32,000 bases of DNA from Candidatus Heimdallarchaeota archaeon (GTDB lineage: Archaea > Asgardarchaeota > Heimdallarchaeia > Heimdallarchaeales > Heimdallarchaeaceae): assembly GCA_030668875.1 (NCBI GenBank), contig DAOVER010000015.1:30001-62000 (forward strand). The letters are read 5' to 3'. Below the pieces are notes generated by a model. That model saw only the letters and a list, made by a program, of their open reading frames with translations. It made no database searches and was not told the origin of the DNA. The stretch's first letter is position 1. Every line of letters starts with the position of its first letter. Shown here in pieces: positions 2,349 to 21,329 of this stretch. The translations under genes were made by a program, and so were the position numbers.

Positions 2349-2885
2349 TTAACTTATCTTCTTAAATACCAAAACTTTTTTTGTTTTTTCTTTTAGCTCA
2401 AATAAATTATCTTTTGTTATATTTTGGATTAGTTTTTCTTCGGATATTTGCCATCTTTGTATGGAAATACAACCATCATTCTTTAGAATTCTATACATCT
2501 CCGTTAATACTTTATCAAGAAATTTATTTAGAAAGTGCATGAAACCAAAAAGAAATGCTAAATCAATACTATTGTTATCTAAAGATGTTTCTGTAACATC
2601 TTCTAATAATGGTTTAACATTCTTGACACCAGTTTTATTAATTTTCTTTTCAATTTTTTTAATCGCATAAGGGTTAATATCATTCGCATAAATTATGCCT
2701 TCTTCACCAACGATTTTAGCAGCTGGAATAGTAAAAAAACCCGGACCACAACCAACTTCTAGAACATGTTGACCTGTTTTTAATCCAGCCGGAATGAGCA
2801 GTTTTTTTGGGTTCATAAATAAACTATACATTTTCTCGTGAATAAAAGAAGTCATTACAAAAGCTGTTTTTTCATGAAATGACAT
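2349..2885 (-). CDS. Class I SAM-dependent methyltransferase
   Basis: Motif I VLEVGCGPG, acidic motif ANDIN, EMYRILK. I place the start at ATG 2885 (MSFHEK), just after the upstream gene's stop and a GAGGGGA RBS, rather than at 2933. Confidence 0.8.
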   Translation of the reverse strand: MSFHEKTAFVMTSFIHEKMYSLFMNPKKLLIPAGLKTGQHVLEVGCGPGFFTIPAAKIVGEEGIIYANDINPYAIKKIEKKINKTGVKNVKPLLEDVTETSLDNNSIDLAFLFGFMHFLNKFLDKVLTEMYRILKNDGCISIQRWQISEEKLIQNITKDNLFELKEKTKKVLVFKKIS

Positions 2886-2886
2886 A

Positions 2887-3537
2887 CTATCCCCTCTTTT
2901 CACAAACAAACTCACAATATTCATTGCCTTCAAAAATAGTTTTACCTATTCCATCTCTATGAAATACAACTTTATCAGGGCAATAAATGTTGTACAATGC
3001 ATTATCGACGTTACACATTATCTTTGTAATCTCAGGTACTCCAAGTCTTTTGAAAAGTCCACTATGCATACAGCTTTTAACTCTGAAATGGTATTTTTTC
3101 TCTGAAGATTCAATGATTTCTATTCTATTTGCTCTTGTTGGACCTTCTGCAATCGCTATTTCATGATATTTTTTTAAGTTTTCAAATGAACGATTTGTTT
3201 CAGCATAGCGAAAATTCCCTAATTGAACAGATATTGCTACAGGTGTAATAATAGCTTGAATTGTTGATAAGGCCCTTTTTTCATCGGTCTTTTTCTTTAA
3301 GATCAGATACATTGATGAGATTAAAGCTACTTGCTTTTTTATGTCACCAGGCATTTTTTTTGGTAACTTCCTTTCCAAACTAGGAACTTTCATCAATGTT
3401 TTTATTAGAAACCAAAATGGTCTTTTAATATATCCTATTATTCCTCCATAAGCTATCAGAATAGTCGATGGTTTTGCTTTATTTTCAATAGATGTTTTCA
3501 ACATAGTTGATACCAATATAGGTATATGCGCAAACAC
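2887..3537 (-). CDS. Putative L-2-amino-thiazoline-4-carboxylic acid hydrolase (ATC hydrolase)-like protein
   Basis: C-terminal pattern FRVKSC-x4-F-x2-LG-x-PE-x4-MC-x-VD ... R-x5-TIFEGNEYCEF, with the Cys-Cys-Cys spacing I recall for this family. Confidence 0.55.
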   Translation of the reverse strand: MFAHIPILVSTMLKTSIENKAKPSTILIAYGGIIGYIKRPFWFLIKTLMKVPSLERKLPKKMPGDIKKQVALISSMYLILKKKTDEKRALSTIQAIITPVAISVQLGNFRYAETNRSFENLKKYHEIAIAEGPTRANRIEIIESSEKKYHFRVKSCMHSGLFKRLGVPEITKIMCNVDNALYNIYCPDKVVFHRDGIGKTIFEGNEYCEFVCEKRG

Positions 3538-3657: not shown

Positions 3658-4170
3658 TTGCTAAAGATAAACGAAAACCATCTGGAAAAAGTTGGAGATT
3701 TAGTAGATGTAAATACAAGCGATTTAACAAAGAATAGATTCGGTAAAAAAATAACTCTGGTCTATTATTATTTGATACAATTTTCATTCTTCATATTTTC
3801 TAGCTTAGTAGGACTAGTATTTGGTTTGTATAGTAGACCTATTGCTACTTATCCTTATAGTGGGTTTCCTCAAAGATATATTTATGGATCAATAATATTA
3901 GCAATAACTCATAGTGGAAATCTGGGTTTATCCTACCAACTAAGTAGAAAAAAAAGACTGATATTGAGTAAGAGAGAACCTAAGATATTATCACCCCTTT
4001 ATATATATCCAATAATAGTTCTAAATTTAATTATGTCAACAATAAGTCTTTTTTCAACACATAATTTTGTATTTGATGGAAGTATATTCACTATAGGTAC
4101 TTTGTATGGAGTTTATGAAAAAAAGAACTTGAATATTAAGAAAAATTTCAGTAAGATTAAGAATGCATAA
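3658..4170 (+). CDS. Membrane protein paralog P1 of 7 (putative radical SAM substrate; subfamily A)
   Basis: AAGGAG RBS and TTG start. Leader NENHLEKVGDLVDV, three hydrophobic segments, YPY loop, C-terminal LYGVY (Tyr codon 4105) and basic tail. Confidence 0.85.
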   Translation: MLKINENHLEKVGDLVDVNTSDLTKNRFGKKITLVYYYLIQFSFFIFSSLVGLVFGLYSRPIATYPYSGFPQRYIYGSIILAITHSGNLGLSYQLSRKKRLILSKREPKILSPLYIYPIIVLNLIMSTISLFSTHNFVFDGSIFTIGTLYGVYEKKNLNIKKNFSKIKNA

Positions 4171-4335
4171 ACATGAATATACCATTCTGGAAAATAAAAC
4201 TAAACTGTAATTGAGGACTAAAATACTACTCTAAAGATGGTTTAACTATGCAAAAAAATGCTTTATTACTCAAGTTCAAGGAAATTTTTTTATATTCTTT
4301 TGTACACATATAAGTATATAATAAAACAATTGATG

Positions 4336-4372
4336 ATTGATGATTAAGTAAAATTAGATGTAAATCAAGGAG
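4336..4372 (+). repeat. Conserved 5' module upstream of P2 (copy 2 of 3)
   Basis: attgatgattaagtaaaattagatgtaaatcaaggag, preceded by an extra attgatg unit. Confidence 0.8.
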
Positions 4373-4375
4373 TGG

Positions 4376-4816
4376 GTGAGGATAAACGAAGACAAATTAG
4401 AAGAAGTTGGAGATTTAGCAAATGTAAATCCAGATGATCTTAAACAGAAAAGAAAGAAAAAGGTAATAGGACGTCTCATTTTTTACTTTATTCAAATATT
4501 CTTCATTTTATTTTCATCACTACTTGGTTATCTATTTGTTTTATGGGAACACGCTGATAGAACAGCCTACCCCCATGGAATTGCGCCTAGACAGGCATAT
4601 GGTGGACTTTTTACTCTAGTTGGTCTTATTGGTGCTAATGGTACAATTTCCTATTATTATAGAAAGAAAAACAAACTTCGCTATATTGAAATGATACCAG
4701 TTCAAATTGCAAACATTGTAATCTCCTTAATTGGCTTTTATTTTATCTGTGGATTAGTTTATCAACCAGAGGTGTTTGTAGGAACCCCATTATATGGTGT
4801 CTATAGAAAAAATTAG
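4376..4816 (+). CDS. Membrane protein paralog P2 of 7 (subfamily B)
   Basis: AAGGAG RBS and GTG start. NEDKLEEVGDLANV leader, YPH loop, LYGVY (Tyr codon 4793). Confidence 0.85.
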   Translation: MRINEDKLEEVGDLANVNPDDLKQKRKKKVIGRLIFYFIQIFFILFSSLLGYLFVLWEHADRTAYPHGIAPRQAYGGLFTLVGLIGANGTISYYYRKKNKLRYIEMIPVQIANIVISLIGFYFICGLVYQPEVFVGTPLYGVYRKN

Positions 4817-4901
4817 TTTTTCAAAATTTAACTCGCACAAGTTCTAGAAATTTTAAATAATTTTCCATACAGCTACCAGACACTTTGTTTTACAAATTCT
4901 C

Positions 4902-4915
4902 GGAAACCTTTTAAG
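4902..4915 (+). promoter_or_regulatory. BRE/TATA candidate for the P3-P7-rSAM-MTase operon
   Basis: GGAAAC-C-TTTTAAG in the P2-P3 gap, upstream of a tightly packed gene run. Confidence 0.45.
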
Positions 4916-4989
4916 TAATTTTGCATATTTCTTCACAACACATAAAATAATCTAAAGTGCATAATAATCCAAATACAGAATGTGATAAC

Positions 4990-5463
4990 TTGAATAAGGG
5001 AAATGTTGAACAAGTTGGAAAACTTGTTGATGTAGATCCATCTGATATCAAACGAAAGAACAGGCGGAAGGTTACTGGGTATGTGATTCATTACTTTGTT
5101 CAAGTTTTTGTCTTTCTATTATCGTCATTATTTGGTTATTTATTCATTCTGTGGGAAAACGCAGATCAATCAAGTTATCCATATGGAACGTTCCCAAGAC
5201 ACCTCTATTTAGGTCCAATAAGTCTATATGGTCTATTTCAAGGTAATGCCATATTTACCTATTTCCACAGAAAAAAACATAAGTTTCGCAACATTGAAGT
5301 ATTTCCAGTAGTATTTGTAAATCTTATAGTCTCTCTCATAAGTTTCTTCATGATTTTTAACGCAATATACCAAGGCCCAGCTCCTACTTTAGGTGTTGCC
5401 GTTGCTTATGGTATTTATGAAAAGGAAAATCCAAGAAGTTTTAAAAAAGTAATGAAAATATGA
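4990..5463 (+). CDS. Membrane protein paralog P3 of 7 (subfamily B)
   Basis: Alignment with the other paralogs favours TTG 4990 (LNKGNVEQVGKLVDV) over GTG 4957. YPY loop, AYGIY (Tyr codon 5407). Confidence 0.8.
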   Translation: MNKGNVEQVGKLVDVDPSDIKRKNRRKVTGYVIHYFVQVFVFLLSSLFGYLFILWENADQSSYPYGTFPRHLYLGPISLYGLFQGNAIFTYFHRKKHKFRNIEVFPVVFVNLIVSLISFFMIFNAIYQGPAPTLGVAVAYGIYEKENPRSFKKVMKI

Positions 5464-5477
5464 AGGAGTTTACACTA

Positions 5478-5972
5478 ATGAACAAAGAAAAATTATCTAA
5501 GGTAGGAGCTTTAACCGAGTTAAAATCTGAGGATATAACTCCGAAAAAGATTAGAAAGAATTTAACTTTAGCTTATTATTATATTATACAGTTTGTATTC
5601 TTCATATTTTCAAGCCTTGTTGGAGTTGTTTTTGGTTTGTATGGCAACTCTCTTTCTTTCTATCCCTATAATGCTTTTCCTCAAAGATATCTCTATGGAT
5701 CAATAATATTAGCAATAACCCATGGAGGTAATTTTGGTCTATCTTACCAATTAAGTAGAAAAAAAAGGTTGATGTTGAGCAAAAGTGAACCTAAGGTGTT
5801 ATCTCCTGTCTATATATATCCGGCAATTGTTCTAAATTTTCTCCTATCAACAATAAGTCTTTTCTCAATACATAACTTAGTAACCAACGGAAGTCCATTA
5901 ACTATGAATACTCTTTATGGTGTATTTTCTAAAGGAAAATCTAATAGAATTAGGAAAATCATGAAAAAATGA
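5478..5972 (+). CDS. Membrane protein paralog P4 of 7 (subfamily A)
   Basis: AAGGAG RBS overlapping the P3 stop, then ATG 5478 (MNKEKLSKVGALTEL). YPY loop, LYGVF (Tyr codon 5916). Confidence 0.85.
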   Translation: MNKEKLSKVGALTELKSEDITPKKIRKNLTLAYYYIIQFVFFIFSSLVGVVFGLYGNSLSFYPYNAFPQRYLYGSIILAITHGGNFGLSYQLSRKKRLMLSKSEPKVLSPVYIYPAIVLNFLLSTISLFSIHNLVTNGSPLTMNTLYGVFSKGKSNRIRKIMKK

Positions 5973-5986
5973 AAGAGGTTATAAAA

Positions 5987-6484
5987 ATGAATGAAAAGAA
6001 ATTGAATGAAGTAGGGAAATTAACTGAAGTTGATTCTAAAGATATAACTCAAAACAAATTCAAGAAGAAAATCACTTTAATGTATTTCTATTTTATTCAG
6101 CTTGGTTATTTAGCGATCTCAAGTTTAGTTGGATACTTATTTGGTTTGTATAAGAATGCGAATAACAGTTATCCATACAATGGATTTGATCAGAGTTACA
6201 TTTTCGGACCACTTCTCGTAGCTATTATTCACGGAGGCAATCTTGGGATGTATTATGGATTGAATAAAAGTAATAGATTAATTCTGAAAGACGGTACAAA
6301 TGCTAAACCATTACCTTTCCATATCTATCCTGTTGTTTTTCTGAATATACTTCTATCTATATTCTCCTTCTTCTTCATCTATAATGATATGATTAGTGGA
6401 TATGTTTTCACAGCTACAACTGATTATGGTGTATATATTAGAAAGAAAGTTCAATTTCATAATAAGCGAGCCAAAAATAATTGA
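5987..6484 (+). CDS. Membrane protein paralog P5 of 7 (subfamily C)
   Basis: GAGGT RBS then ATG 5987 (MNEKKLNEVGKLTEV). YPY loop, DYGVY (Tyr codon 6425). Confidence 0.85.
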   Translation: MNEKKLNEVGKLTEVDSKDITQNKFKKKITLMYFYFIQLGYLAISSLVGYLFGLYKNANNSYPYNGFDQSYIFGPLLVAIIHGGNLGMYYGLNKSNRLILKDGTNAKPLPFHIYPVVFLNILLSIFSFFFIYNDMISGYVFTATTDYGVYIRKKVQFHNKRAKNN

Positions 6485-6518
6485 TGATAGACCAAAATAG
6501 ATGTAAATATTGGAGGAG
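6480..6518 (+). repeat. Conserved 5' module upstream of P6 (copy 3 of 3, more diverged)
   Basis: attgatgat-agacc-aaaat-agatgtaaat-attggaggag. It overlaps the P5 stop codon. Confidence 0.65.
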
Positions 6519-7034
6519 ATGAAGATAAACGAAAAAAAACTAGAAGAAGTTGGAGCATTAACAGAGGTAGGTTCTGCGGATATAACTAAGAATAAGATTA
6601 GAGCAAAAATCACCTTAGTTTATTATTATCTTATACAACTTGGATTTTTAGTTGTCTCAGGATTTATTGGATATCTATTTGGTATGAACAAGAATACTAG
6701 TTCTGCTTATCCGTATAGTGGATTCGATCAAAGTTACATTTTTGGGTCCATTTTTATAGTAATTGCCCATGGAGGAAATTTCGGTTTATCTTATGGATTG
6801 AGCAAGAAAGACAAATTAATTTTAAAGAAAGGGGCAAATATTAAACTATCTCCTTTCTATATCTATCCTGCAGTTTCCTTAAATTTTGTTTTATCAATAC
6901 TAAGCTTCTTAGCTATCTATAATCTGGTGTTTAGTGGGGATGTTTTCACAACTACAACACGTTATGGAGTATATGAACAAAAGATATGCAAAATCTCGAA
7001 ATGTAAATATAATACTAATAATAAAATGAGTTGA
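6519..7034 (+). CDS. Membrane protein paralog P6 of 7 (subfamily C)
   Basis: GGAGGAG RBS then ATG 6519 (MKINEKKLEEVGALTEV). YPY loop, RYGVY (Tyr codon 6963). Confidence 0.85.
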   Translation: MKINEKKLEEVGALTEVGSADITKNKIRAKITLVYYYLIQLGFLVVSGFIGYLFGMNKNTSSAYPYSGFDQSYIFGSIFIVIAHGGNFGLSYGLSKKDKLILKKGANIKLSPFYIYPAVSLNFVLSILSFLAIYNLVFSGDVFTTTTRYGVYEQKICKISKCKYNTNNKMS

Positions 7035-7039
7035 AATTT

Positions 7040-7543
7040 ATGAACGAAAAAAAGCTCGAAGAAATTGGGAAACTCACAGAAACGGATCCAAATGATTTAG
7101 CAATGAATAAAATCAAGAGAAAAATTTCTTTGATGTTTTATTATATTATACAATTTGTATTTTTAATAACTTCAGGACTGATTGGGTTTATATTTGGTAT
7201 TTATGAAAATGAGATAAATACTTATCCTTATGTTGGTTTTGATAAAAATTACATTATCGGACCTATTCTTGTAGTAGTAGTTCAAGGAGGGAATTTTGGC
7301 ATGTCATATGGACTGAGAAAATCAAACAAATTAATATTAAAAAAGGGAACAGAGACTAAACTTTCTCCTTTCTATATCTACCCTGTTGTTTTTCTAAATC
7401 TGATTTTATCGTTATTGCTGTTTTTATCTATCTATCAGATGTTTGTACCTAGATTTTCTCAAACGACATTCCCAATGTATGGCGTATTTATAAGAAAGGA
7501 ATTAAAAAGTAAAAATGTATTAAGTAGGATTAATTATGTATAG
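7040..7543 (+). CDS. Membrane protein paralog P7 of 7 (subfamily C)
   Basis: ATG 7040 (MNEKKLEEIGKLTET). YPY loop, MYGVF (Tyr codon 7478). Overlaps the radical SAM gene by 8 nt. Confidence 0.85.
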   Translation: MNEKKLEEIGKLTETDPNDLAMNKIKRKISLMFYYIIQFVFLITSGLIGFIFGIYENEINTYPYVGFDKNYIIGPILVVVVQGGNFGMSYGLRKSNKLILKKGTETKLSPFYIYPVVFLNLILSLLLFLSIYQMFVPRFSQTTFPMYGVFIRKELKSKNVLSRINYV

Positions 7544-8600
7544 ACTAGATTGTGCGATTTGGGAACTCACGTTAGCTTGTAATATGAATTGTAAACATTG
7601 TGGGTCAAGTGCTGGAAAAGCTAGAAAAGATGAGCTTTCTTTAGATGAGTGTTACGAATTATGTAAAGAATTTGCAGATGAAGGATGTAACTTAGTTACA
7701 TTGATGGGTGGGGAACCATTTGTTAGAAAAGATTGGAACCAAATTTCTTGGTGTATCAAAGATCTTGGAATGGACCTAGGGTATGTGACAAATGCACTAC
7801 TAGTTCCTAATATCATTGAAGACTTAATTTTACTTGAACCACTGGTTGTCGGTATCTCTTTGGATGGCGTGAAAGAAACTCACGATAGTATCAGAATAGA
7901 AGGGTCATTTGATGCTGTAATTAAGGCATTAGATCTTCTCGAAGAAGCTGGTATTCAAATAACTATAATTACTACTCTAAGCAAAACCAATTTCAAAGAA
8001 TTACGAAAAATAAAAGAAATCATCCAAAATAGAAAAATAAATTGGCAGTTACAAATAGGTTTACCCTTTGGTAACTTTGATCCTGCGCTTACTTTGAGTT
8101 TAGAAGAGTTTTACGCTTCTGCAATGTTTATCACTGCTGAAGGAATTAAGAACAAATTCAGAGAAATGCCTGTAGTTGGAGCACATTGTTATGGGTATTA
8201 TTCCCATCTTCTTCCAAACAACAAAAATTGGAAGGGATGCACAGCGGGTATAAATACGGTAGGAATAACTTCCGATGGTTCAATTGTAGGGTGTTTATCA
8301 ATGGGCAACAATAAATTTATTGAGGGTAATGTCAGAGATCGTAGCTTCTCTGATATCTGGAATGATCCTAATTCCTTTGCATACAATCGGCAATTTACTA
8401 GAGATAACTTAGGTGAGAATTGTGTTAATTGCTTCTATGGTGAAACCTGCAAAGGTGGATGTAATTCTTCTTCTCTTCATCTTACTCACACTTTTCATAA
8501 CAATCCTTACTGTTTCAAGCAAATTGAAGAAAACCTCTTTGAGGTTAAGCCATACCGTAAGGAGATTAAGTGGTTAAAAGAAAAAGGAGTTAAGATCTGA
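7536..8600 (+). CDS. Radical SAM/SPASM domain enzyme, splicease (PlpX)-like peptide/protein maturase
   Basis: C15-x3-C19-x2-C22, GGEP, SLDG and SPASM cysteines (GCTAG...GC...CVNC-x5-CKGGC...NNPYC). Subfamily call rests on recalled motifs WELTLACN..C.HCGS.AGKAR.DELS, WQ.Q...P.GN, GYY and W.GC.AG. Radical SAM-SPASM is certain; the splicease assignment is less so. Confidence 0.9.
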   Translation: MYRLDCAIWELTLACNMNCKHCGSSAGKARKDELSLDECYELCKEFADEGCNLVTLMGGEPFVRKDWNQISWCIKDLGMDLGYVTNALLVPNIIEDLILLEPLVVGISLDGVKETHDSIRIEGSFDAVIKALDLLEEAGIQITIITTLSKTNFKELRKIKEIIQNRKINWQLQIGLPFGNFDPALTLSLEEFYASAMFITAEGIKNKFREMPVVGAHCYGYYSHLLPNNKNWKGCTAGINTVGITSDGSIVGCLSMGNNKFIEGNVRDRSFSDIWNDPNSFAYNRQFTRDNLGENCVNCFYGETCKGGCNSSSLHLTHTFHNNPYCFKQIEENLFEVKPYRKEIKWLKEKGVKI

Positions 8601-9883
8601 TGATAAAACTAAATTTAGGCTGTGGTGTATTCTATAAACCTGGATATGTCAATATTGATTTATCAGAAAAGGATGTAGCTGATGAGGTACAGAATGTTGC
8701 TGAACTTAAGTATGAATCTAATACTGTAGATGTCATAGAAGCATCCCATATTATCGAACACTTCGATATTATTCATCTTCCATACGTTCTTGCAGAATGG
8801 TTTAGAGTACTAAAACCAGATGGGGTTTTATACATCGAAACTCCAAATTTATTGAAATCAATAATTACTTTGAAGCCTAAAAACTATGAGTCAAAGAAAC
8901 TCACATATCAATTTCTATTCGGTATTGATTATGAAGGAAATTCCCACAAAATGGGTTTCACTTCTAAATTTTTAAAGAAATATCTTCTCTCTACTGGTTT
9001 TACAAAGATATCCAAACAAAAGCAAAGAAGCTTCAATTCAGAGAAGAGTATAAGGTACTGTTGCAGGAAACCTACTGATACTCCATTGACGAACAAAAAA
9101 TTCTTTCTAAATCATTTAAGAACACTTATTAAAAATCAATTCGGTTTATCAGATACTCTCTTCTTAGATCATTGTGAGTCAAATTGTATGAGTTTTTTCA
9201 GAAACTTGAAACTAAAAAATGACATGGATAATTTGAACGATGAATTATGCTTAGAACTAATAGCTTCCCTAACACTTTTTAGTCCCAAAGTAGCTAAAAT
9301 CTTCATTAAGCTTTTCTCAGACAACTTGCCTGCTAACATTAATCTTGATATAATAGATTATTTAGATTCAATAGATTTCTCATCTAGAATGTATGAGAGT
9401 TGGAAGAGTTGGATAAAAAATAAAGATGGAACTATGTACGCTGCATTTTATTTCTACAATCACTGGACTTCAAAAATAAAGAAAAATTTGTTAGCAGAAA
9501 CTAAAATTGATGTTATGTATGATTACATTGAATCATTAGATAAAAGTGATTACAATTACTTCTGTTTTGAGCAAGTAAATATCTTATCTCTCAGGACATC
9601 TAATCAAGGTTTACGATACTTCTCCAACAAAAATTTTGAGAAAGCAAAGGAGTTATTTCTAGAAGCATTGAAGCTTCAACCCTATGATCCAGTTTCAAAC
9701 TGGAATCTAGCTAGATTATCTAAAAATTCTGATAACAAAGAAAAGTTGCTCTTCTATTACAAACAAGCAATTATGAATGTCTCATCTAGAAAGCACAAAA
9801 AGAAAATTAGAAAGGAAGTTAAACTTCTTAAGAACGGTAATAGTAAACTAATATCTTCAGAACCTATTCAAATTAGATTCTAG
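8600..9883 (+). CDS. SAM-dependent methyltransferase-like domain fused to a helical region and C-terminal TPR
   Basis: KLNLGCG, VNID, ASHIIEHF, EWFRVLKPDG at the N-terminus. TPR-like NQGLRYFSNKNFEKAKELFLEALKLQPYDPVSNWNLA at the C-terminus. ATG overlaps the radical SAM TGA. Confidence 0.75.
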   Translation: MIKLNLGCGVFYKPGYVNIDLSEKDVADEVQNVAELKYESNTVDVIEASHIIEHFDIIHLPYVLAEWFRVLKPDGVLYIETPNLLKSIITLKPKNYESKKLTYQFLFGIDYEGNSHKMGFTSKFLKKYLLSTGFTKISKQKQRSFNSEKSIRYCCRKPTDTPLTNKKFFLNHLRTLIKNQFGLSDTLFLDHCESNCMSFFRNLKLKNDMDNLNDELCLELIASLTLFSPKVAKIFIKLFSDNLPANINLDIIDYLDSIDFSSRMYESWKSWIKNKDGTMYAAFYFYNHWTSKIKKNLLAETKIDVMYDYIESLDKSDYNYFCFEQVNILSLRTSNQGLRYFSNKNFEKAKELFLEALKLQPYDPVSNWNLARLSKNSDNKEKLLFYYKQAIMNVSSRKHKKKIRKEVKLLKNGNSKLISSEPIQIRF

Positions 9884-10000: not shown

Positions 10001-12400
10001 GTGACAAAAGCTATTAAGGACACAGATAACATCTGGCAACCATCTGAAAATCTTAGTCCGAGAATAAAAAGATTAAGAGATGAATATTTCTCCTTTTACG
10101 AACGTTATGATTATTATACGAATGAAGTTCGCCCTTACACAACAGGTACTTCTTGGGATGATGTTTATAGTTATACTAACTGGGGAGCAGCTCCTGAGGG
10201 GCTTGACTTTTTTCCAGGTTATAAAGACAATCTACGCTCTTTAGCTGAAAAGGTTGAATTTCCTAATGAGTTCTATAAATTATCTATTGCTGAAAGAAGA
10301 GCTCATTTCTTAAACAAAGTTGTTGAGAAAAATCTCCCTGCTATTATCCTTAAAGGTGAATTAATTATAGGAAGCCATTTCAGTACAGCTTTAAGTAGAA
10401 CTCTTACAAAATCTGAAACAAAGAAGTGGTCAAAAGATCAGAATAAATACTTCAAGGAGTTAGTTTTTAGATGTGAAACTGGGGAATTTAACTATGGTGC
10501 CATTCCTGGTCATCTAATTCCAAACTATGAAAAAGCTATAAAGATTGGTTTCTCTGGTATTCAAAAAGAGTTGAAGGAATTAAGAAAATCTCCAAAGAAC
10601 AAAGAACATTCTCAATGGCTTGATGCACTCATTGAGTCTTGTGAGGTCCCTAAACTGCTTGCTGAACGATATTCTAAGGAAGCAGAGAAACTAGCTAAAC
10701 TGGAAAAGGACCCTAGTAGAAAATCTGAGCTTCTCTATCTCTCTCAAATTTGTAAAAAAGTTCCTTGGGAGCCTGCTGAATCTTTCTGGGAAGCTGTACA
10801 ATCTCTTTGGTTTACTCATATTTTAGTTATGGCAGCTGAAAGCTATCCTGGACCAGGAACAAGTCCTGGACGAATTGATCAGTATCTCTACCCTTACTTT
10901 AAACAAGATATTGACAACGGAAAAATAGATTATGATTTTGCAAAGGAGATCTTAAGTTGTTATTGGATTAAACACAATTATGCTTATGATTTTCAAGGAC
11001 AAGTTGGAAATTCTCAAGGAATAAATTCTAGTTTTGGTCAATTAATTACTCTTGGTGGAATAGATGAAAATCATGAGGATGCATCAAATGAATTAACACT
11101 TTTAATGTTGGATATAATCGATGAAATTAATCTTCTTGAACCCAAGCCTAATGTAAGAATTCATGCGAAGACATCAGATAAAGTCGTGAAGAAAGTTGCT
11201 GAAATGATTGTTAAATCTCAAGGAAGTCCATTCCTGATGAATTTTGACGAAACAGCTATGAAAGGACTGATTTGGCAAGGTATACCTGAGGACGAAGTTT
11301 GGAATTATGGTCCCGTTGGTTGTCTAGAAAATACTATGATTGGTAATGATGTTTCCGGAACCGTTGATGTTAATGTTAACATTGCTAAGGCAGTTGAACT
11401 AACATTGTTCAATGGTAAAGATCTCCAAACAAAAAAGCAAGTAGGACCAAAAACAGGAAATCCAAAGAAATTCAAAACATTTGATCATTTTAAAGATGCA
11501 TACATTAAGCAACTCACTGCCTTGCTAGATAGAGCTATTGACGCAAATAATCATGCTGATATGATAAGAGCAGTTTACGAGCCTGTTCCGTATGTTTCTC
11601 TATTAATCGATGGATGTGCAGAATCTGGCAAAGATTGTAGAGCTGGAGGAGCTAAATATAATTTCATAACGGTCGAAGCTTTAGGTTTAGCAAATGTCGC
11701 TGATTCTCTAGCTGCTGTTAAAAAACTTGTTTATGAAGAAAAAAGAATAACAATGGATCATCTTCTAAAAGCTCTTAAGAAAAATTATGAAGGATATGAA
11801 GAAACTAGACAACTACTGCTAAATCATGCTCCTAAGTATGGTAATGATGATGATTATGTAGATAGTATCGCACGAGAGATTTCTCAATATTGGGGGATCT
11901 ATGTTTCAACAAAAACTTCCCCTATTACTAACAGACAGTATCGTGGTGGTTATCTTTCTTGGAATTATTTCATTTCTTTTGCACCCAAAACTGGAGCTCT
12001 TCCAGATGGTCGTCCAAGAGGAGCTTACTTATCGGGTGGTGTTGGACCAACTCAAGGTGTTGATACCAGTGGTCCAACAGCTTCTATAATGAGTGTTGGT
12101 AAACTTGGCGTGGAAGTACAACCTAATGGATCATCTCATACAATGTCATTTAGCCCAGCAAGTCTTCGAGATGAGGAACATGTAGAAAAACTCATTGCAC
12201 TTCTTAGGGCCTATGGGCATGTTGGGGGAACTGCGTTACAAACAAATGTTGTCAGTATTGATACACTCAAGAATGCTCAAACTGATCCAGAGAAATATAG
12301 AAACCTCTTAGTACGAGTTACAGGATATAATGCGTATTTCACAACCTTAGGAAAAGAACAACAAGATGAGATAATTGCAAGAGAATCTCATAAAGTCTAA
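10001..12400 (+). CDS. Glycyl radical enzyme (PFL2/dehydratase-lyase-like; substrate unknown)
   Basis: C-terminal LLVRVTGYNAYF (Gly775), active-site loop GCLEN (Cys441), SPGRIDQYLYPY, GALPDGR. 799 aa. Confidence 0.9.
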   Translation: MTKAIKDTDNIWQPSENLSPRIKRLRDEYFSFYERYDYYTNEVRPYTTGTSWDDVYSYTNWGAAPEGLDFFPGYKDNLRSLAEKVEFPNEFYKLSIAERRAHFLNKVVEKNLPAIILKGELIIGSHFSTALSRTLTKSETKKWSKDQNKYFKELVFRCETGEFNYGAIPGHLIPNYEKAIKIGFSGIQKELKELRKSPKNKEHSQWLDALIESCEVPKLLAERYSKEAEKLAKLEKDPSRKSELLYLSQICKKVPWEPAESFWEAVQSLWFTHILVMAAESYPGPGTSPGRIDQYLYPYFKQDIDNGKIDYDFAKEILSCYWIKHNYAYDFQGQVGNSQGINSSFGQLITLGGIDENHEDASNELTLLMLDIIDEINLLEPKPNVRIHAKTSDKVVKKVAEMIVKSQGSPFLMNFDETAMKGLIWQGIPEDEVWNYGPVGCLENTMIGNDVSGTVDVNVNIAKAVELTLFNGKDLQTKKQVGPKTGNPKKFKTFDHFKDAYIKQLTALLDRAIDANNHADMIRAVYEPVPYVSLLIDGCAESGKDCRAGGAKYNFITVEALGLANVADSLAAVKKLVYEEKRITMDHLLKALKKNYEGYEETRQLLLNHAPKYGNDDDYVDSIAREISQYWGIYVSTKTSPITNRQYRGGYLSWNYFISFAPKTGALPDGRPRGAYLSGGVGPTQGVDTSGPTASIMSVGKLGVEVQPNGSSHTMSFSPASLRDEEHVEKLIALLRAYGHVGGTALQTNVVSIDTLKNAQTDPEKYRNLLVRVTGYNAYFTTLGKEQQDEIIARESHKV

Positions 12401-12414
12401 AGAGCAAATCTCTA

Positions 12415-13368
12415 ATGTCAGTAAACCAAAACCTTTCAGGTAGAGTATTAAACATCCAACGATTCTCAACAGAAGATGGACCTGGTATCAGAACAACCAT
12501 TTTTCTTCAAGGTTGTGCGTTACGATGTAAATGGTGTCAGAATCCTGAAAGTTGGTATTTAAAACCTCAATTAGTATGGTACGATGATAGATGTATAGCA
12601 GCTAAAGATTGCTTATTAGCATGTCCGGAGGATGCACTAGACCTTACAGCTGAAGGAATGGTTATTGATAGAGAAAAATGTACGGGTTGTGGGAAATGTG
12701 TAGTAGCATGTCCAACAAAATCATATGAAATTATGGGGAAAGAAATGTCTGCAACAGCAGTCATTAAACAAGCTTTACGTGACAAAACATTCTATGAACA
12801 ATCTGAAGGTGGAGTGACAATTTCAGGAGGGGATCCTCTCTTTCAGCAGAAATTTAGTCTGGAAATACTTAACTCCCTAAAACAAGAAGGAATTCACACT
12901 GCAATTGATACAACAGGTTTTTCTAAACCAGAAGAATTTCAGCAATTGGTGGATCTTTCTGATTTAATACTTCTAGACTTCAAACAGATGAACCCTAATT
13001 TACACAAAGAATTTACAGATGTAGATTTAGATAAAATTCTTACAAACGCTAAATGGTTGGGTGTACAAAAAAAGAAAGTTTGGATAAGAACTCCAATTAT
13101 TCCCGAGTATACAGATCAAGAAGAGAATATAATTGAAATTGCTAAATTCATAAAAGAGAATATGAGTGATGTTGTTGAAAGATGGGATCTACTAACTTAC
13201 AATAATCTATGTGTTTCAAAATGGAAAAGATTAGATATTTGTTATGAATTAGAACATTTACCTTTAGTAACAACATCAAAAATCCAGAAACTTGCAGACT
13301 TAGCAAAAGAGTCTGGTGTGCCTGTCACTTGGACAGGAGTCTTACAAAAAAATGAAAATGATGGATAA
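12415..13368 (+). CDS. Glycyl radical enzyme activating enzyme (radical SAM, long form with ferredoxin insertion)
   Basis: DGPGIRTTIFLQGCALRCKWCQNPES, insertion CIAAKDCLLAC...CTGCGKCVVAC, GGVTISGGDP, WIRTPIIP. Lies directly downstream of the GRE. Confidence 0.92.
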   Translation: MSVNQNLSGRVLNIQRFSTEDGPGIRTTIFLQGCALRCKWCQNPESWYLKPQLVWYDDRCIAAKDCLLACPEDALDLTAEGMVIDREKCTGCGKCVVACPTKSYEIMGKEMSATAVIKQALRDKTFYEQSEGGVTISGGDPLFQQKFSLEILNSLKQEGIHTAIDTTGFSKPEEFQQLVDLSDLILLDFKQMNPNLHKEFTDVDLDKILTNAKWLGVQKKKVWIRTPIIPEYTDQEENIIEIAKFIKENMSDVVERWDLLTYNNLCVSKWKRLDICYELEHLPLVTTSKIQKLADLAKESGVPVTWTGVLQKNENDG

Positions 13369-13376
13369 GAGTAAAA

Positions 13377-14168
13377 ATGAAATTAACAGAAAAAGCAAAA
13401 GAAGCATTTAATATCTTTGAAGCTGCTAAATTTATGGCAACTAAAGATGAGGCTAACATCCCTAATATTGCTATGATCGCAACCTTAAGTCCATGGGGTG
13501 AAGATGAACTAATCTTTGGAACATTTTTAATGTGGCAGACTGAGAAGAACCTTCGAAGTGGTTCTCCTGTTACTGCTAGTGTTATGACAACTAACTTTGA
13601 TAGTTATCAAGTAAAGGGAGAATTTCTAGGTTTCGAGAAGCAAGGTGAAAAATTTGATACTTTGAGTAATTTAGATCTTTTTAGATATTCAGCTATCGGT
13701 CTTCTTAGATCAGTTGGAACTATTGCAGTTAAAGAAGTTAAACCTCTCAATTTAAGTTTGTTTTCCGTAGCACGAGAGTGGATGTCAACAAAATTTGGTG
13801 GTAAAAGACCAAAAGATTTTCCGGAAGGTAAAAAAGCTAATCCAATAGTTGTTAAGAACACAAGCGTCCTGATGGGTGCCAAATATCTTACCGTCATAAG
13901 AGACAACGAATTAGAACAGTTTCCAGTTCTTGGGATGAGACCCGTAGAAGATTATTTAGCGATTAGAGCTGATTTACCTTTAGAAGTAGGAGAAAATGTT
14001 GCAGTATCTTCTTTCAACCTTGGTCTTAAAGCATATCAGTTTAAAGGAACATATCAAGGTGTAAAAAGAGCTAGAGGTATCACTTTAGGTTACGTAAAAG
14101 TAGATAGAATACTTTCACAGACTCCTCCTTTAGTTTCTAAAGAGGTTCCTTCAGATAATTTCAATTAG
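13377..14168 (+). CDS. Pyridoxamine 5'-phosphate oxidase-like (split-barrel) protein with two tandem domains
   Basis: FMATKDEANIPN...QTEKNLRSGSPV...SYQVKG is echoed by KYLTVIRD...ENVAV...AYQFKG. Confidence 0.65.
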   Translation: MKLTEKAKEAFNIFEAAKFMATKDEANIPNIAMIATLSPWGEDELIFGTFLMWQTEKNLRSGSPVTASVMTTNFDSYQVKGEFLGFEKQGEKFDTLSNLDLFRYSAIGLLRSVGTIAVKEVKPLNLSLFSVAREWMSTKFGGKRPKDFPEGKKANPIVVKNTSVLMGAKYLTVIRDNELEQFPVLGMRPVEDYLAIRADLPLEVGENVAVSSFNLGLKAYQFKGTYQGVKRARGITLGYVKVDRILSQTPPLVSKEVPSDNFN

Positions 14169-14182
14169 AAGAAGAAGGAATT

Positions 14183-15304
14183 TTATTTCCTTTTTCTTAA
14201 AACTGTAACAATTGCAGCTAATGCAATAAACCCTAGAATAACAGATAAGGTTCCATATGAAGCGCCAGAAACATCATTTATAATTGTAAAGACCTTGCTG
14301 GATACCATGACAGTGGGAATTGTAATAGCTTCGTAATCCCAACTAAAGTGAGGTTTCATCCCAATTGCTGCAAAATATACGTAATTGTTGCCAGCATTAA
14401 GTGGAAAGGTATACTCATTTTTTAGTGAGAATGCTCCATCATTTGCCCACCAAAAGGAAATGCCAGGTCCAAGGTGATGTAGACTCTGAAACACTGCATA
14501 TCCGTCATCTTCAACTAGAGCTAGTGGATAGGTTGAGTAATTGTAATCAGCTTCCACATAAGCATCATCAACCGATCTAAGTAATGTTTGAGAAAGAGTA
14601 CTAACATCACTATCATGTAGTTCTGTTGTGACACGAATATCGGTCCAAGTCCATTCAAAGTGATTTACTAGTTGATCTGCATCAGTTGGATAGGATCTAA
14701 CATTACAAACATTCGATGCCTGTTTTCTTTCAGGTGGATTGTCTATTGGGTCTTCTGAAACATAGAAGTATAAATTATCTTTAGCCCATTCCCAACTGAA
14801 GGTTGTGTGATAGATATCAGAAACAACCTCTCCTGCGATAATTGTCAGCAAATGCCAACCTTCTTCTAGAGTTACTGCTATGCCTTGAGTTGTGTTTATT
14901 CCAGAATATTGACCTATATTTGAAATTCCTAGGTCAGTATTGTCTAAATATAAATTGAAATTGCCTTGTAACCTAGTAACATTATACTCACCAAATTCAT
15001 TAGGTTCATTGAAATACCATTGATTAACATAAGATTCTTCCCCGCTATCAGTAAATAAAGTGTCATCAGCAATATCTATGTCAAAACCAAACCATATATC
15101 GTCATCTGTCGTATAGACTTGCTCATTAGCCATTATTGATCTGTTAAATTCTATAAACATTGAAGGACCGAGTTCATAAGTAAAAATTGGTGCAATCTTC
15201 AAAGTAACTGGAACAAGTTTCGTTTCTTGTTCTCCAATTATAGTTAAAGCAGAAAATGTTGATGCCAGAATCAAAACAAGTAAAACAAAATTTTTCTTAT
15301 TCAT
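14183..15304 (-). CDS. Hypothetical cell-surface protein with signal peptide and C-terminal membrane anchor
   Basis: MNKK plus hydrophobic N-terminus; acidic, aromatic-rich body; C-terminal TM followed by RKRK. Confidence 0.7.
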   Translation of the reverse strand: MNKKNFVLLVLILASTFSALTIIGEQETKLVPVTLKIAPIFTYELGPSMFIEFNRSIMANEQVYTTDDDIWFGFDIDIADDTLFTDSGEESYVNQWYFNEPNEFGEYNVTRLQGNFNLYLDNTDLGISNIGQYSGINTTQGIAVTLEEGWHLLTIIAGEVVSDIYHTTFSWEWAKDNLYFYVSEDPIDNPPERKQASNVCNVRSYPTDADQLVNHFEWTWTDIRVTTELHDSDVSTLSQTLLRSVDDAYVEADYNYSTYPLALVEDDGYAVFQSLHHLGPGISFWWANDGAFSLKNEYTFPLNAGNNYVYFAAIGMKPHFSWDYEAITIPTVMVSSKVFTIINDVSGASYGTLSVILGFIALAAIVTVLRKRK

Positions 15305-15728: not shown

Positions 15729-17276
15729 TTAACTTCTTTTTTTACTTCTTCTTGGAAGTCTTAATACTAAAAGGAATAGAAATAAAATCATAATAGAAGG
15801 TACAAAAAGAATGTTTGCTATAACAGTGTACTCTTCATCAATTTTATCTGAAAGCGGATATGTGTCTGCTGAGTTACTAGCTCCATCTATCTCATAATCT
15901 CCACTTTCAAAGTCACTCCAGAAATTTCCCTCTAAGGTTGTAGGATTGTACCATAGATTTTCTTCACCATCATCATATGCTTGACTCTCACCCATTTGGT
16001 TATTACTGTAAAATTCATTATGATCTATTTGATTCCAATAACTCTCATAATCGATATATACTCCATAATCCCGATTATGATGGAAGTAATTGTAATTAAT
16101 TGAAATATTATTACTATTCATTAAATGAAGACCATTTCCATCGTTATAAGATATGGAATTCTTTTCAATCATATTTTCTGAACATTTATATAAGAAGATA
16201 CCATTTAAACCATTTTGAAGAATTGAATTCCGAGATATCAAGGTACTTACTATACCTTCTGCACTGATTCCTTTATATCTACTCTCTTCGATTTTATTTG
16301 AATAAATAAAAGCCCCAATAATCTCTTTTAAAGATAAACCAATATTATTACTTTGTGAAATGTTATTAAACTGTATTATCGGATAATTAGCAGTTTCATA
16401 AAAGATACTTTCTACAGACTCAATCAATATTCCAACTTCAGTTTTCGAAATACCATTTTTACTTATAAGTAAAGTGTCACAATTTATAGCACGTATACCA
16501 ACATCACCAGCTGAAAAAATTATATTAGATACAACTTTACATCCTTCAGAGTATTCTATATCTATTGAATTATCATCTAAATTATAGTACATATTGTTAA
16601 GAAATGAAAAATGATTGTTATAAATTAATGTCCGGTCAGAGTGACTAGTTAGTATTCCATTATCACACAAGAAAAACTGATTATTATATATATGACAATC
16701 ATCTGAATGACTAATCATAACTGGATATAGACACTTAGAGAAAGTATTGTTAGTTAAATAACAAAACTGAGAATAATAATTGTAAATACCAGCCTCACAT
16801 CTAGAGAAAATATTCCATTCCAATTTAACACGATATGAATTTTCTACTCTTATCCCATTTATCATCGAATATGAGTTACCATTGAAAGTGTTATTGACAA
16901 TGTTTATTGTTTCATTTAGAATGTCTTTGATTTTTATTCCATAAATACCTTCATAAAAAGTACAGTTACGTATTTCGATGTGTTTAGTTGTTTTATAAAT
17001 GTAAATAACATTCTCAGTTGAAGGTTGTCCTGTAAAAATGATATTTTCAATTAAGAAAGGATTTTCAATAGTTCCATTTCCTGTTAAACTAAGTAAATCT
17101 GGATCTGAATCAGAGGTGATTAAAATCTCATTTATTGAATCTAGATTTGGATTTACATTCAATTGCACTAATGAAGAAGAAGTATTAATCAGAGCAAAGA
17201 AAAATAACGAAAATAATAAACATATTAGAAAAGTAGTTTTCAATATATTCTTTTGATTGATACTTTTCCACTTCAT
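15729..17276 (-). CDS. Right-handed parallel beta-helix (NosD/PbH1-repeat) surface protein
   Basis: Repeated I-x-x-N-x-[FI]-x-x-N/C...GI units, GNGTIENPFLIEN, terminal GNFWSD...DTYPL. N-terminal signal and C-terminal TM with basic tail. Confidence 0.8.
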   Translation of the reverse strand: MKWKSINQKNILKTTFLICLLFSLFFFALINTSSSLVQLNVNPNLDSINEILITSDSDPDLLSLTGNGTIENPFLIENIIFTGQPSTENVIYIYKTTKHIEIRNCTFYEGIYGIKIKDILNETINIVNNTFNGNSYSMINGIRVENSYRVKLEWNIFSRCEAGIYNYYSQFCYLTNNTFSKCLYPVMISHSDDCHIYNNQFFLCDNGILTSHSDRTLIYNNHFSFLNNMYYNLDDNSIDIEYSEGCKVVSNIIFSAGDVGIRAINCDTLLISKNGISKTEVGILIESVESIFYETANYPIIQFNNISQSNNIGLSLKEIIGAFIYSNKIEESRYKGISAEGIVSTLISRNSILQNGLNGIFLYKCSENMIEKNSISYNDGNGLHLMNSNNISINYNYFHHNRDYGVYIDYESYWNQIDHNEFYSNNQMGESQAYDDGEENLWYNPTTLEGNFWSDFESGDYEIDGASNSADTYPLSDKIDEEYTVIANILFVPSIMILFLFLLVLRLPRRSKKRS

Positions 17277-19418: not shown

Positions 19419-21329
19419 TTAATTTTCACTTATATTTTTCCTCCTCCTAATCCAAATAATAGCAATTATACAAAGAAGTGGTAAGTAGAATGAGATATTT
19501 GCATATGCTATAATTATATTGTATCCTGCAAATTCTAGCCATTCATTAGCTTCTGCAAGATCATAATTATATTTGATAATATCTTTATAATAATGGTAAG
19601 TATTCGCGGGTAAAATCATACTATGACTGATAATGTATTCCCCATTGTGAACAACATGGTTGATATCTTTTCTATCAATAGCATAACAAATAGCTTTTCT
19701 CACAGCAACTGCTTTAGTATAATCTTCTTTACCTTCTGCGGTAAGAAACACAAAGTTATCAACACCACCTACGAAAGGTCTCTGAAGATTAAAGGCCAGA
19801 AAAGTCATTGAATTCCTTGGATAGCTGAAAACAGAGAATCTTTGATCATTTTGCATTTGTTTTCTTTCAGATGGGAAGAACATTAAACCAGTCCAGTCCA
19901 ATTTGCCAGCCTTGAATTCAGCTAATTCTTCAGTAATATCAGATATAACACGTACGTTGAATGTTTCAATATCTAGATCTTGCGTTGTTCCGTCAATTGC
20001 ACCAACATACATCCAGTATGGGCTAGCTTGGAGAACAGTAACGGAGTTTTTGATATAATGATCTAACATGTATTTTCCACAACCAAATGCGGAAGTACTA
20101 TAGTATAACCATGGATTAGTGTCTAGAATACCAGTATAGAAACCAGTACATTCAGCTCCACCAGAAGTGTATGAGACAGTGGGATTTGAGGAATTCAAGA
20201 AGAATTCGGGTAGAATTTCCCAAGGTAGTCTGGCCCAAAAGTCGACGTATTGTTCAATTTCTGGAGTATATGGGTTTCCATCAATCTCAATGTGGAAGGA
20301 TAGTTCATCTACTGGGTCAACATAGCAAGCTGAAATCCAGTTATGATAAGATGGACTTTCACTAACGATTGCGTTTGCCCATGCAAGGTAGGTAAAGACT
20401 GCGTCTTTGGCAGTGACTTGTTGGTTTTCACCATTACTAACTTCACCATTTTTTAGACCTACCATTAAAGGAGTGGTAGTTGGGTCAAGTGGGTCAGAGC
20501 TGGCATCTCTGCCTGTTACGTCAAATGATGGGTTCCACCATACATCATCTCTCATAGTAAATTCGTAATGGAATTCGTCAATTTGTTTCCAATCTGAAAC
20601 TAATGAGGTTTTAAGTGGGACAAAATCAGGACTCCAACCAACAATTGATTCAGCCATTAAGCTGAATATGAAAGAGCTGGATGTATCATCTGTTTGTAAT
20701 GGGTTCAAATCTCTCCAATAAGCATCAGCTATGTTGAATTCAGTTAATGAATCTTGACCTTCATGAAGACCACTATATTCGATGTAAGGTAAGGAGTCAA
20801 TTATTCCCCAGCGCACATCATAACCGAGTGTGTTTGACCATGTAGCAACGTATGATCTCGGTGAGAACAATGGTAGAATATGAACTATCTTATCCATAAC
20901 TAATTGCTGCCAGTTATAGTAGTGTTGCTGTTTTTGTTCAAGATCAGTTATGGTAACACCTTCAATAAGCATATTTTCACTAATGTTTCCATATGGTATC
21001 TCTCTAGGTATTTTTACAGACAAACCATCATAAGAATTAAATGGATTTTGATTTCCTGACAGTCCTATTATGTACATATCATAATCTTGTGTAAGCAGTA
21101 AACATCCAACGAACACTGTCCATTCTTCGACTTTAACTTCTACTTCAATACCGATTTCTCTAAGATACTGAGCTATGTAAAGACCATAGTCAGGTCTTAC
21201 TCCTCCCCCGTTAGTTTTTAGAACTAAATTACAATGAGGTTCAATACTCGCTTGAACACTAACAACTGAATAGAGAATTGACACCGAAAGTAAACTAACA
21301 AAGACTAGCGTATTTGTTTTTTTACACAT
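19419..21329 (-). CDS. ABC-type solute-binding protein family 5 (peptide/nickel), circularly permuted, C-terminally anchored
   Basis: VTAKDAVF, FGCGKYML, AEFKAGKLD, FLAFNLQRPF, VRKAICYAIDR, YDLAEANEWLEFAGY. GGTGA RBS, signal peptide, and C-terminal TM followed by RRRK. Confidence 0.85.
   Translation of the reverse strand: MCKKTNTLVFVSLLSVSILYSVVSVQASIEPHCNLVLKTNGGGVRPDYGLYIAQYLREIGIEVEVKVEEWTVFVGCLLLTQDYDMYIIGLSGNQNPFNSYDGLSVKIPREIPYGNISENMLIEGVTITDLEQKQQHYYNWQQLVMDKIVHILPLFSPRSYVATWSNTLGYDVRWGIIDSLPYIEYSGLHEGQDSLTEFNIADAYWRDLNPLQTDDTSSSFIFSLMAESIVGWSPDFVPLKTSLVSDWKQIDEFHYEFTMRDDVWWNPSFDVTGRDASSDPLDPTTTPLMVGLKNGEVSNGENQQVTAKDAVFTYLAWANAIVSESPSYHNWISACYVDPVDELSFHIEIDGNPYTPEIEQYVDFWARLPWEILPEFFLNSSNPTVSYTSGGAECTGFYTGILDTNPWLYYSTSAFGCGKYMLDHYIKNSVTVLQASPYWMYVGAIDGTTQDLDIETFNVRVISDITEELAEFKAGKLDWTGLMFFPSERKQMQNDQRFSVFSYPRNSMTFLAFNLQRPFVGGVDNFVFLTAEGKEDYTKAVAVRKAICYAIDRKDINHVVHNGEYIISHSMILPANTYHYYKDIIKYNYDLAEANEWLEFAGYNIIIAYANISFYLPLLCIIAIIWIRRRKNISEN

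Follow-up and report, generated by a model that had tools for sequence, protein, structure and literature searches.

How can a cytoplasmic radical enzyme act on a motif that seems to end up outside the cell? The question is raised by a gene cassette in a 32,000-nucleotide stretch of Candidatus Heimdallarchaeota archaeon DNA (contig DAOVER010000015.1, positions 30,001 to 62,000; the whole stretch is called the window below). Here seven tandem genes for small membrane proteins, P1 to P7, precede the genes for a radical S-adenosylmethionine (SAM) enzyme and a methyltransferase, and each of the seven proteins carries an X-Tyr-Gly motif near its C-terminus. On balance, and with modest confidence, we favour the view that this conserved island is the core of a protein-maturation system resembling that of peptides made on the ribosome and modified after translation (RiPPs), which is modified in the cytoplasm and then exported. 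The C-terminal motif is most likely the target of the maturase, and the cassette is most likely an undescribed system common to archaea and bacteria.

The cassette occupies positions 3658-9883 of the forward strand (all gene coordinates refer to the window), where seven paralogous genes of 146-174 codons stand in tandem ahead of two enzyme genes, which adjoin them and each other with overlapping or abutting stop and start codons. P1 (3658..4170, 170 aa) consists of a leader helix, three transmembrane (TM) helices and a flexible tail with the motif LYGVY (4102-4116). It is followed by P2 (4376..4816, 146 aa, LYGVY at 4790-4804), which has the shortest tail (RKN), P3 (4957..5463, 168 aa, AYGIY at 5404-5418), P4 (5460..5972, 170 aa, LYGVF at 5913-5927), P5 (5969..6484, 171 aa, DYGVY at 6422-6436), P6 (6510..7034, 174 aa, RYGVY at 6960-6974) and P7 (7031..7543, 170 aa, MYGVF at 7475-7489). 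The P7 gene overlaps the start of the gene for the radical SAM/SPASM enzyme (7536..8600, 354 aa), which presumably is the maturase. A SAM methyltransferase with a TPR C-terminal part (8600..9883, 427 aa; Pfam Methyltransf_11/23 and TPR) completes the conserved cassette as its third member. Identity of the paralogs to P1 is 34-60%, and their close homologs carry Heimdallarchaeota labels. Searches of P1-P7 against Pfam, NCBIfam and PADLOC gave no family above threshold (sub-threshold chance matches only), and a protein Atlas features search with P1 returned only unnamed clusters with scores below 0.9. In the 92%-complete 3.2-Mb assembly all copies of the P1-P7 family are confined to this one locus, and the radical SAM family of the cassette is present as a single copy.

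Conservation sets the motif apart from its surroundings. The pattern X-Y-G-[VI]-[YF] is found in all seven paralogs just as the initial annotation had read it, from the first base of the P1 X codon (4102) to the last base of the P7 Phe codon (7489). In the entropy profile YGV[YF] are the four least variable residues (0.36 bits), and the hypervariable stretch described in front of them is equally real: the linker reaches 1.84 bits and the tail behind the motif 1.78 bits, against 1.1-1.4 bits elsewhere. Among 64 close homologs the Tyr is present in 64, the Gly in 60 (the other four read YSV) and the Val in 62. The X residue is L (24), M (14), A (11), F (5), D (3), Y (3), E (2), R (1) or K (1); it varies between paralogs and inside orthologous groups, with L, M, A or F in 84% of cases. 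Over 113 family members nothing is invariant except the pair Y65-P66 of loop 1 and, in the motif, Y150 (P1 numbering), with G151 conserved in 85% and V152 in 92%. Nor is invariance confined to the motif among the paralogs: their seven-way alignment contains 19 invariant columns. The count of 16 YG dipeptides is likewise correct (6.5 are expected from composition); the nine outside the motif fall at non-conserved alignment columns (e.g. column 76, with Y in 34 of 111 sequences) and, to judge by the alignment, are incidental and carry no signal. Sequence conservation thus supports the motif as a real, strongly selected island beside a splicease-like radical SAM/SPASM enzyme.

On which side of the membrane does this island lie? 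Hydropathy gives two strong hydrophobic segments and one weaker segment per paralog, TM2 being the least hydrophobic (mean Kyte-Doolittle hydropathy 0.67). AlphaFold2 performed poorly on P6 with 64 sequences (predicted local distance difference test, pLDDT, 64); with 113 sequences the model of P1 has a mean pLDDT of 77 and a predicted template modelling score (pTM) of 0.61. It contains helices at residues 34-58, 72-97 and 113-138 (block pLDDT 87-96), a coil at residues 139-160 that includes the motif (pLDDT 50-60), and a conserved N-terminal leader helix at residues 6-15 with a pLDDT of only 55-60. Monomer modelling, which had been proposed in the initial annotation, accordingly returns a flexible tail behind three membrane helices of high confidence. 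Given the short loops and the pTM of 0.61, these helices probably pack in antiparallel fashion. Lys and Arg residues average 7.0 before TM1, 1.3 in loop 1, 5.5 in loop 2 and 0.2 in the polar linker behind TM3 (11 residues, mean Kyte-Doolittle hydropathy 0.5). In addition, the first Lys or Arg of P1-P7 lies at least 16 residues past TM3, whereas in surface proteins of the same window such a cluster abuts the C-terminal helix. Since there are three confident helices, and the basic segments are those before TM1 and in loop 2 while loop 1 and the linker are not basic, the predicted topology is N-in/C-out. The motif is then set opposite the N-terminus, so that the topology puzzle posed at the outset is genuine and holds for the whole family. 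Burial of the YG pair in a helix of a known membrane fold, which would have made the motif a matter of helix packing, does not agree with these models: the motif is in a coil, and Foldseek found no match for either monomer model (P1, P6) in the PDB at E <= 0.001.

Two further ideas on topology were set aside. Dual topology is rejected, as all seven paralogs share the N-in charge bias. N-glycosylation sequons (N-x-T-Y) in front of the Tyr core were considered as a marker for the outside, but dropped because the Thr belongs to the conserved motif, which biases the count. Apart from topology, several polar or Gly residues are conserved within the helices (P1 numbering): Q41, S48 and G52 in TM1, H85, G87, N88 and S92 in TM2, and N123 and S127 in TM3. 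As the polar helix residues are conserved throughout the family, this suggests a membrane domain with a function of its own beyond anchoring, e.g. oligomerisation or a polar pathway.

It might be argued that the tail never leaves the cytoplasm and is modified after insertion, either with TM2 not spanning the membrane (N-in/C-in) or with a re-entrant or short fourth span behind TM3. The low hydropathy of TM2 would suit such an arrangement, as would the middle segment of only ~10-15 residues in Thermoplasmata relatives and the Lys/Arg-rich tail of the subfamily (5.1 K+R); moreover, the radical SAM enzyme and the methyltransferase lack a signal or TM segment and must act in the cytoplasm. We nevertheless consider it improbable. 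AlphaFold2 models TM2 as a 26-residue helix with a pLDDT of ~90 and only coil behind TM3, and the linker, with its 11 residues, 0.2 K+R and mean hydropathy of 0.5, does not resemble a further span. Single-span relatives have no room for a second crossing, the core of bacterial homologs is preceded by lipoprotein or Sec signals and by a Kunitz domain, and the tails of many relatives comprise 2-6 residues, some of them acidic. The fourth TM helix or re-entrant strand once proposed consequently lacks support, on account of the coil at pLDDT 50-60, the polar linker and the short linkers of the single-span forms. What was said about a basic tail needs qualification as well: it is present in all seven paralogs (2-7 K+R and 0-2 D+E), but it is lineage-specific and not a property of the family. 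Heimdall tails carry ~5 K+R (5.1) at a net charge of +3.9, against +1.0 in distant relatives. In relatives just 2-8 residues follow the motif, and acidic ones are often among them.

The relatives just mentioned provide the strongest clue to the order of events. We compared ~100 loci with the radical SAM family (73 archaeal and 29 bacterial, a few being mutual duplicates) and found the leader and the core in four architectures. The three-helix form of the window, with a leader, three hydrophobic segments and the core x-Y-[G/N/D/S]-[V/T]-[Y/F], is also present in MK-D1, where three paralogs are encoded at L027:6429-7843, in Thermoplasmata (120-130 aa, with the shortened middle segment) and in one Chloroflexia genome; its tails often comprise just 2-8 neutral or acidic residues. 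A second form has a leader, one TM helix and the core Y-[PTLA]-x-G-x-x-Y-[SGAN]-x-[VIL]-x-x-x-[DE]-F. Its helix is flanked by 2.9 K+R on the N-side and 0.9 on the C-side, which predicts N-in/C-out, and only 8-12 residues separate the helix from the Tyr. The P1 tail IGTLYGVYEKKNL aligns in register with the core SGTLYSTVKLKDF of this single-span form.

In bacteria the core is carried by proteins with export signals. At 18 of the 29 bacterial loci the substrate is a putative lipoprotein with a leader, a hydrophobic region with a lipobox Cys at ~37-51, a Pro/Ala/Gln-rich linker and a C-terminal core, which in Elusimicrobia reads C-G-P-Y-P-G-Y-P-C-G-T-R-Y-[YF]-T-V-S-x-x-D-F. A variant at four bacterial loci has a leader, a Sec-type signal, a Kunitz/BPTI-like stretch and the core Y-P-V-S-K-Y-G-[GA]-V-x-x-R-D-F. 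The Kunitz domain (PF00014) is clear in Syntrophus (L096:3571-3999, E 1e-13) and in a deltaproteobacterium (L086:3460-3999, E 5.6e-15), marginal in Smithellaceae (L090:3595-3999, 22.5 bits at a cut-off of 21) and just under the cut-off in Nitrospiraceae (L085:3595-3999, 19.9 bits). No methyltransferase was found within 4 kb of these four loci. Kunitz folds are extracytoplasmic, rich in disulfides and inhibit proteases. The fourth architecture is the simplest: in Thermoplasmatales (loci L050, L052-L057, L061 and L103; e.g. L061:5067-5246, L055:3591-3848 and L056:3270-3650), which have two paralogous radical SAM enzymes, soluble leader-core peptides of 52-85 aa without a hydrophobic segment end in X-Y-G-T-[IV]-S-I-K-D-F. 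Judged by its sequence this is the classical layout of a RiPP precursor. One open reading frame (ORF) of this kind has three core repeats, and another consists of two fused leader-core units.

The architectures are linked by their shared radical SAM and methyltransferase neighbours and by profile searches. A profile of archaeal cores alone retrieves bacterial C-termini (E 2e-6 to 2e-2, among 1,350 ORFs), a profile of archaeal leaders alone retrieves bacterial N-termini (E 6e-5 to 4e-3), and the full-length three-helix profile matches single-span forms (E 2e-3 to 6.5e-7); the latter profile did not detect the bacterial lipoprotein substrates. The core Tyr is kept, as are a second Tyr located 5-6 residues upstream and, at +2 or +3, an aliphatic residue, and the residue after the core Tyr varies (G, S, A, N, D, Y or F).

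In bacteria the core must come to lie outside the cytoplasm, since it follows a lipobox in some forms and a Sec signal with a disulfide-rich Kunitz domain in others. Radical SAM chemistry requires SAM and a cytoplasmic reductant. As the core is exported and the enzyme depends on the cytoplasm, modification first and export afterwards is the simplest reading. In the system that we propose, a paralog would begin with a cytoplasmic leader helix at its N-terminus, followed by a membrane domain of three helices and by a flexible core at the C-terminus. The cytoplasmic radical SAM/SPASM enzyme, probably together with the methyltransferase-TPR protein, would modify the invariant Tyr before the tail leaves the cytoplasm; TM3 would then insert and the tail would pass to the outer face. 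The mature protein would be N-in/C-out and display the modified Tyr site at the surface, where the invariant Tyr-Pro of loop 1 also lies. The leader, placed ahead of the export signal, would remain cytoplasmic and might keep the enzyme close to the C-terminus as this emerges. Y150 as target of the radical SAM enzyme, the moment of its modification, the side on which it finally lies and the reaction itself are all points that we infer. The interpretation offered initially thus survives in part: the island is real, a three-helix topology does set it opposite the N-terminus, and its suggestion of modification before insertion gains from homologous cores that follow one TM helix, lipoprotein or Sec signals or a Kunitz domain, or that occur in soluble peptides, while the re-entrant strand or fourth TM helix and the family-wide basic tail lack support.

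Precedents for this order exist. In the anSME and QhpD systems modification precedes export, so that an exported site can well be a radical SAM substrate. As here, a cytoplasmic SPASM enzyme (anSME/AtsB or QhpD) recognises a short motif in a protein of which the modified part ends outside. The chemistry differs, being conversion of Cys or Ser to formylglycine in the one case and formation of thioether crosslinks in the other, and their substrates neither have a leader helix upstream of the signal peptide nor form arrays of membrane-protein paralogs.

The enzyme itself matches Pfam Radical_SAM (E 1e-22) and SPASM (E 1.9e-9), and in 52 homologs the CxxxCxxC motif (C15, C19 and C22) and eight C-terminal SPASM cysteines are invariant or nearly so. 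Its best NCBIfam models are TIGR03913 (200 bits) and TIGR04103 (190 bits), both matched over nearly the full length, followed at a distance by the next best model (138 bits); other radical SAM proteins of the same genome score at most 59 bits. TIGR04103 we take to be equivalent to IPR026482 (PlpX), and PlpX is the founding splicease. The mycofactocin model TIGR03962 is matched with 125 bits (cut-off 265), and similarity to anSME is limited to a distant PDB match at the superfamily level (E 1e-5). Beside the enzyme there is no GDL-motif peptide, the partner belonging to TIGR03913; its neighbours are the membrane proteins with a Tyr core. The cassette contains no PqqD-like gene. A predicted complex of the enzyme with full-length P6, SAM and three 4Fe-4S clusters gave run values of 0.01, 0.55 and 0.00, which is no evidence either way.

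What would be done to the tyrosine? Tyramine excision is the leading hypothesis, though not established. Splicing of this kind removes C8H9NO (135.06 Da) and leaves an alpha-keto-beta-amino amide, and known splice sites are defined by the Gly after the Tyr. A splicease-type excision would convert X-Tyr-Gly of the paralogs into such an alpha-keto-beta-amino amide, and the P1-like side chain would differ among the seven proteins (L, L, A, L, D, R and M), which might serve as protease inhibitors tethered to the surface. PlpX is placed in a radical SAM-SPASM subclass of its own, IPR026482 (PMC11002830). Spliceases remove tyramine at X-Y-G, the binary ones being activated by a leader helix (PMC11414181), and the ketoamides that splicing yields are inhibitors of Ser and Cys proteases (PMC11626197, PMC9811515). 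The picture fits the X-Y-G that is strictly kept, with X variable, both in the window and among the soluble cores, as well as the predicted leader helix and the Kunitz fusion. Taken to its full extent it would describe a RiPP-like system with a recognition leader ahead of an export device, in which the electrophilic ketoamide is set before export to give Asgard archaea a surface panel of membrane-tethered protease-inhibitor warheads that differ in P1 side chain, the bacterial Kunitz versions being double-headed; in this complete form we hold it to be rather unlikely.

A comparison with described spliceotide systems (PlpX/PlpY of type I; binary RhaX, RasX and RcsX of type II; PMC11414181, PMC11626197, PMC11002830) brings out likeness as well as difference. 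Shared features are a radical SAM enzyme with SPASM domain, several tandem precursor genes, and an X-Tyr-Gly with variable X in a flexible C-terminal core (in all seven paralogs and in the soluble Thermoplasmatales cores). The predicted N-terminal leader helix, in a cassette that has no separate RiPP recognition element protein, would resemble the binary systems, TIGR04103 and TIGR03913 are the nearest curated profiles, and the bacterial substrates with a Kunitz fusion recall the link to protease inhibition. On the other hand, the window enzyme scores only ~1/4 to 1/3 of the family cut-offs. Spliceotide precursors are Nif11 or NHLP peptides, whereas here they are three-helix, single-span, lipoprotein, Kunitz or short-peptide precursors, in which a membrane or export segment separates the leader from the core; the methyltransferase-TPR partner is conserved, and the Gly is replaceable in relatives. 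The described splicease systems (PMC11414181) have no counterpart to the methyltransferase, which is present in most cassettes here. The hosts, known here from sequence, are also different: Asgard and other archaea, Elusimicrobia and other bacteria.

A number of observations weigh against the reading that we prefer. The enzyme scores far below the curated cut-offs (200 against 592 bits for TIGR03913; 190 and 188.7 bits against 725 for TIGR04103), and since this holds for both models, by sequence it is a relative of the splicease-like equivalogs and not a member. The Gly after the Tyr gives way to N, D or S in 15% of the three-helix relatives; many single-span forms have S or A in its place, and the Elusimicrobia lipoproteins Y or F. 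With a Gly that can be replaced and an X that is mostly L, M, A or F, the case for a strict XYG splicease becomes weaker. The enzyme might also have its real target, or a further one, in the second invariant pair, Y65-P66. A leader profile of the single-span and soluble forms misses the leaders of P1-P7 at E <= 1, so the leader similarity of P1-P7, which is a shared pattern and spacing supplemented by the full-length profile matches, is the weaker link between the forms. Finally, the basic Heimdall tail (~5 K+R, net +3.9), a peculiarity of the subfamily that the proposed order does not explain, is unfavourable for translocation across the membrane.

The replaceable Gly, the conserved upstream Tyr-Pro and the methyltransferase partner call for caution, as the enzyme might carry out another Tyr-centred reaction: a C-C or C-O crosslink (e.g. 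to the Tyr of the Y-P pair or to residues +2/+3), beta-hydroxylation or desaturation, followed by methylation. We regard such chemistry as a serious contender, even if we would not bet on it. It would agree with the PlpX-type score far under the cut-off, with the retention of the Tyr, the upstream Tyr and the aliphatic +2/+3 residue while the post-Tyr residue varies, and with a methyltransferase in most cassettes that is without counterpart in described spliceases (PMC11414181). It is less easily reconciled with the two nearest curated models, which are both splicease-like and well ahead of the models for crosslinking SPASM enzymes, with the strict X-Y-G and variable X of the soluble Thermoplasmatales cores and all seven paralogs, as in spliceotides, or with the Kunitz fusion, which suits a protease-inhibitor warhead. 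Mycofactocin offers a partial parallel, as MftC is a SPASM radical SAM enzyme that acts on a Tyr of MftA in a Gly-Val-Tyr context, and the window motif contains G-V-Y. MftC, however, needs a C-terminal Tyr (oxidative decarboxylation), whereas here 5-21 residues follow and the invariant Tyr precedes the Gly.

Should the motif be a substrate at all? It could instead serve a structural, sorting or interaction role (e.g. docking on loop 1 or on a surface partner), with the enzymes acting on Y65 or elsewhere. Y65-P66 equals Y150 in invariance, the conserved polar helix residues (Q41, S48, H85, N88, S92, N123 and S127) point to a function of the membrane domain, and the link between enzyme and tail is indirect. 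Even so, we think it very improbable that the motif is not modified: the soluble peptides of 52-85 aa consist of leader and core alone, the core is the sole element besides the leader that all four architectures have in common, and the Y-P-like Tyr of the single-span and soluble forms, being 5-6 residues away from the core Tyr, is part of one short core with it.

Modification of the core before export would apply to a broad range of organisms. Over 1,500 relatives of the radical SAM enzyme were found at E <= 1e-10, and the best 120 listed are at least 53% identical over most of its length. Of 200 Asgard genomes sampled, 36 have a member of the family, with more than one copy being a rare exception. 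Scanning of species genomes located it in Heimdall-, Prometh-, Hod-, Hel-, Hermod- and Thorarchaeota (the cultured MK-D1 among them), among other archaea in Thermoplasmata, Undinarchaeota and Nanohalarchaeota, and at 40-45% identity in Elusimicrobia, Chloroflexia, Nitrospiraceae, Syntrophus, Smithellaceae, other Deltaproteobacteria and one Shapirobacteria genome. A small substrate-like ORF adjoins the enzyme gene in 69 of the 73 archaeal loci, and a methyltransferase gene lies beside it in 63 of these and in 24 of the 29 bacterial loci. The combination of paralog, radical SAM enzyme and methyltransferase recurs with unrelated flanking genes on other Heimdall contigs and in Promethearchaeum syntrophicum MK-D1. 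A search of the published literature gave no article on the cassette, on Kunitz domains combined with radical SAM enzymes or on Asgard spliceases.

To our knowledge, backbone-editing radical chemistry has been described only for a few bacterial peptides. If the proposed system is correct, such editing would be a widespread decoration of exported and membrane proteins in Asgard archaea including MK-D1, Thermoplasmata, Elusimicrobia and syntrophic Deltaproteobacteria. It would also provide a concrete case of a leader peptide ahead of an export signal, fixing the order from modification to export, and a handle on the cell-surface biology of Asgard archaea. The soluble leader-core peptides and the Kunitz fusions are easy constructs for studying the chemistry, and the splicease toolbox for protein engineering could be extended to membrane and secreted proteins.

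Four sequencing runs are listed with the window locus, all of them DNA runs of one marine-sediment study and none RNA. For the MK-D1 genes 61% of the sampled words are indexed in one RNA-seq run.

As to the surroundings of the cassette, a class I SAM methyltransferase and an ATC_hydrolase-family protein are encoded upstream on the reverse strand (2349-3537), but these are not kept beside the cassette at other loci. Just downstream, a tight operon (10001-14168) encodes a glycyl-radical enzyme (PFL-like plus Gly_radical), an activase with a ferredoxin insert and a 263-aa protein without Pfam match. Predicted surface proteins with NosD/beta-helix or family-5 solute-binding domains are clustered on the reverse strand (14183-15304, 15729-17276, 19419-21329, 21578-22603, 22724-24379 and 24376-26382). 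In four of these (14183-15304, 15729-17276, 19419-21329 and 24376-26382) a C-terminal TM helix is followed directly by an Arg/Lys cluster; the protein at 21578-22603 has a longer tail beyond the basic cluster, and the one at 22724-24379 has only an N-terminal hydrophobic segment. NosD-like genes adjoin the cassette in other Heimdall contigs too.

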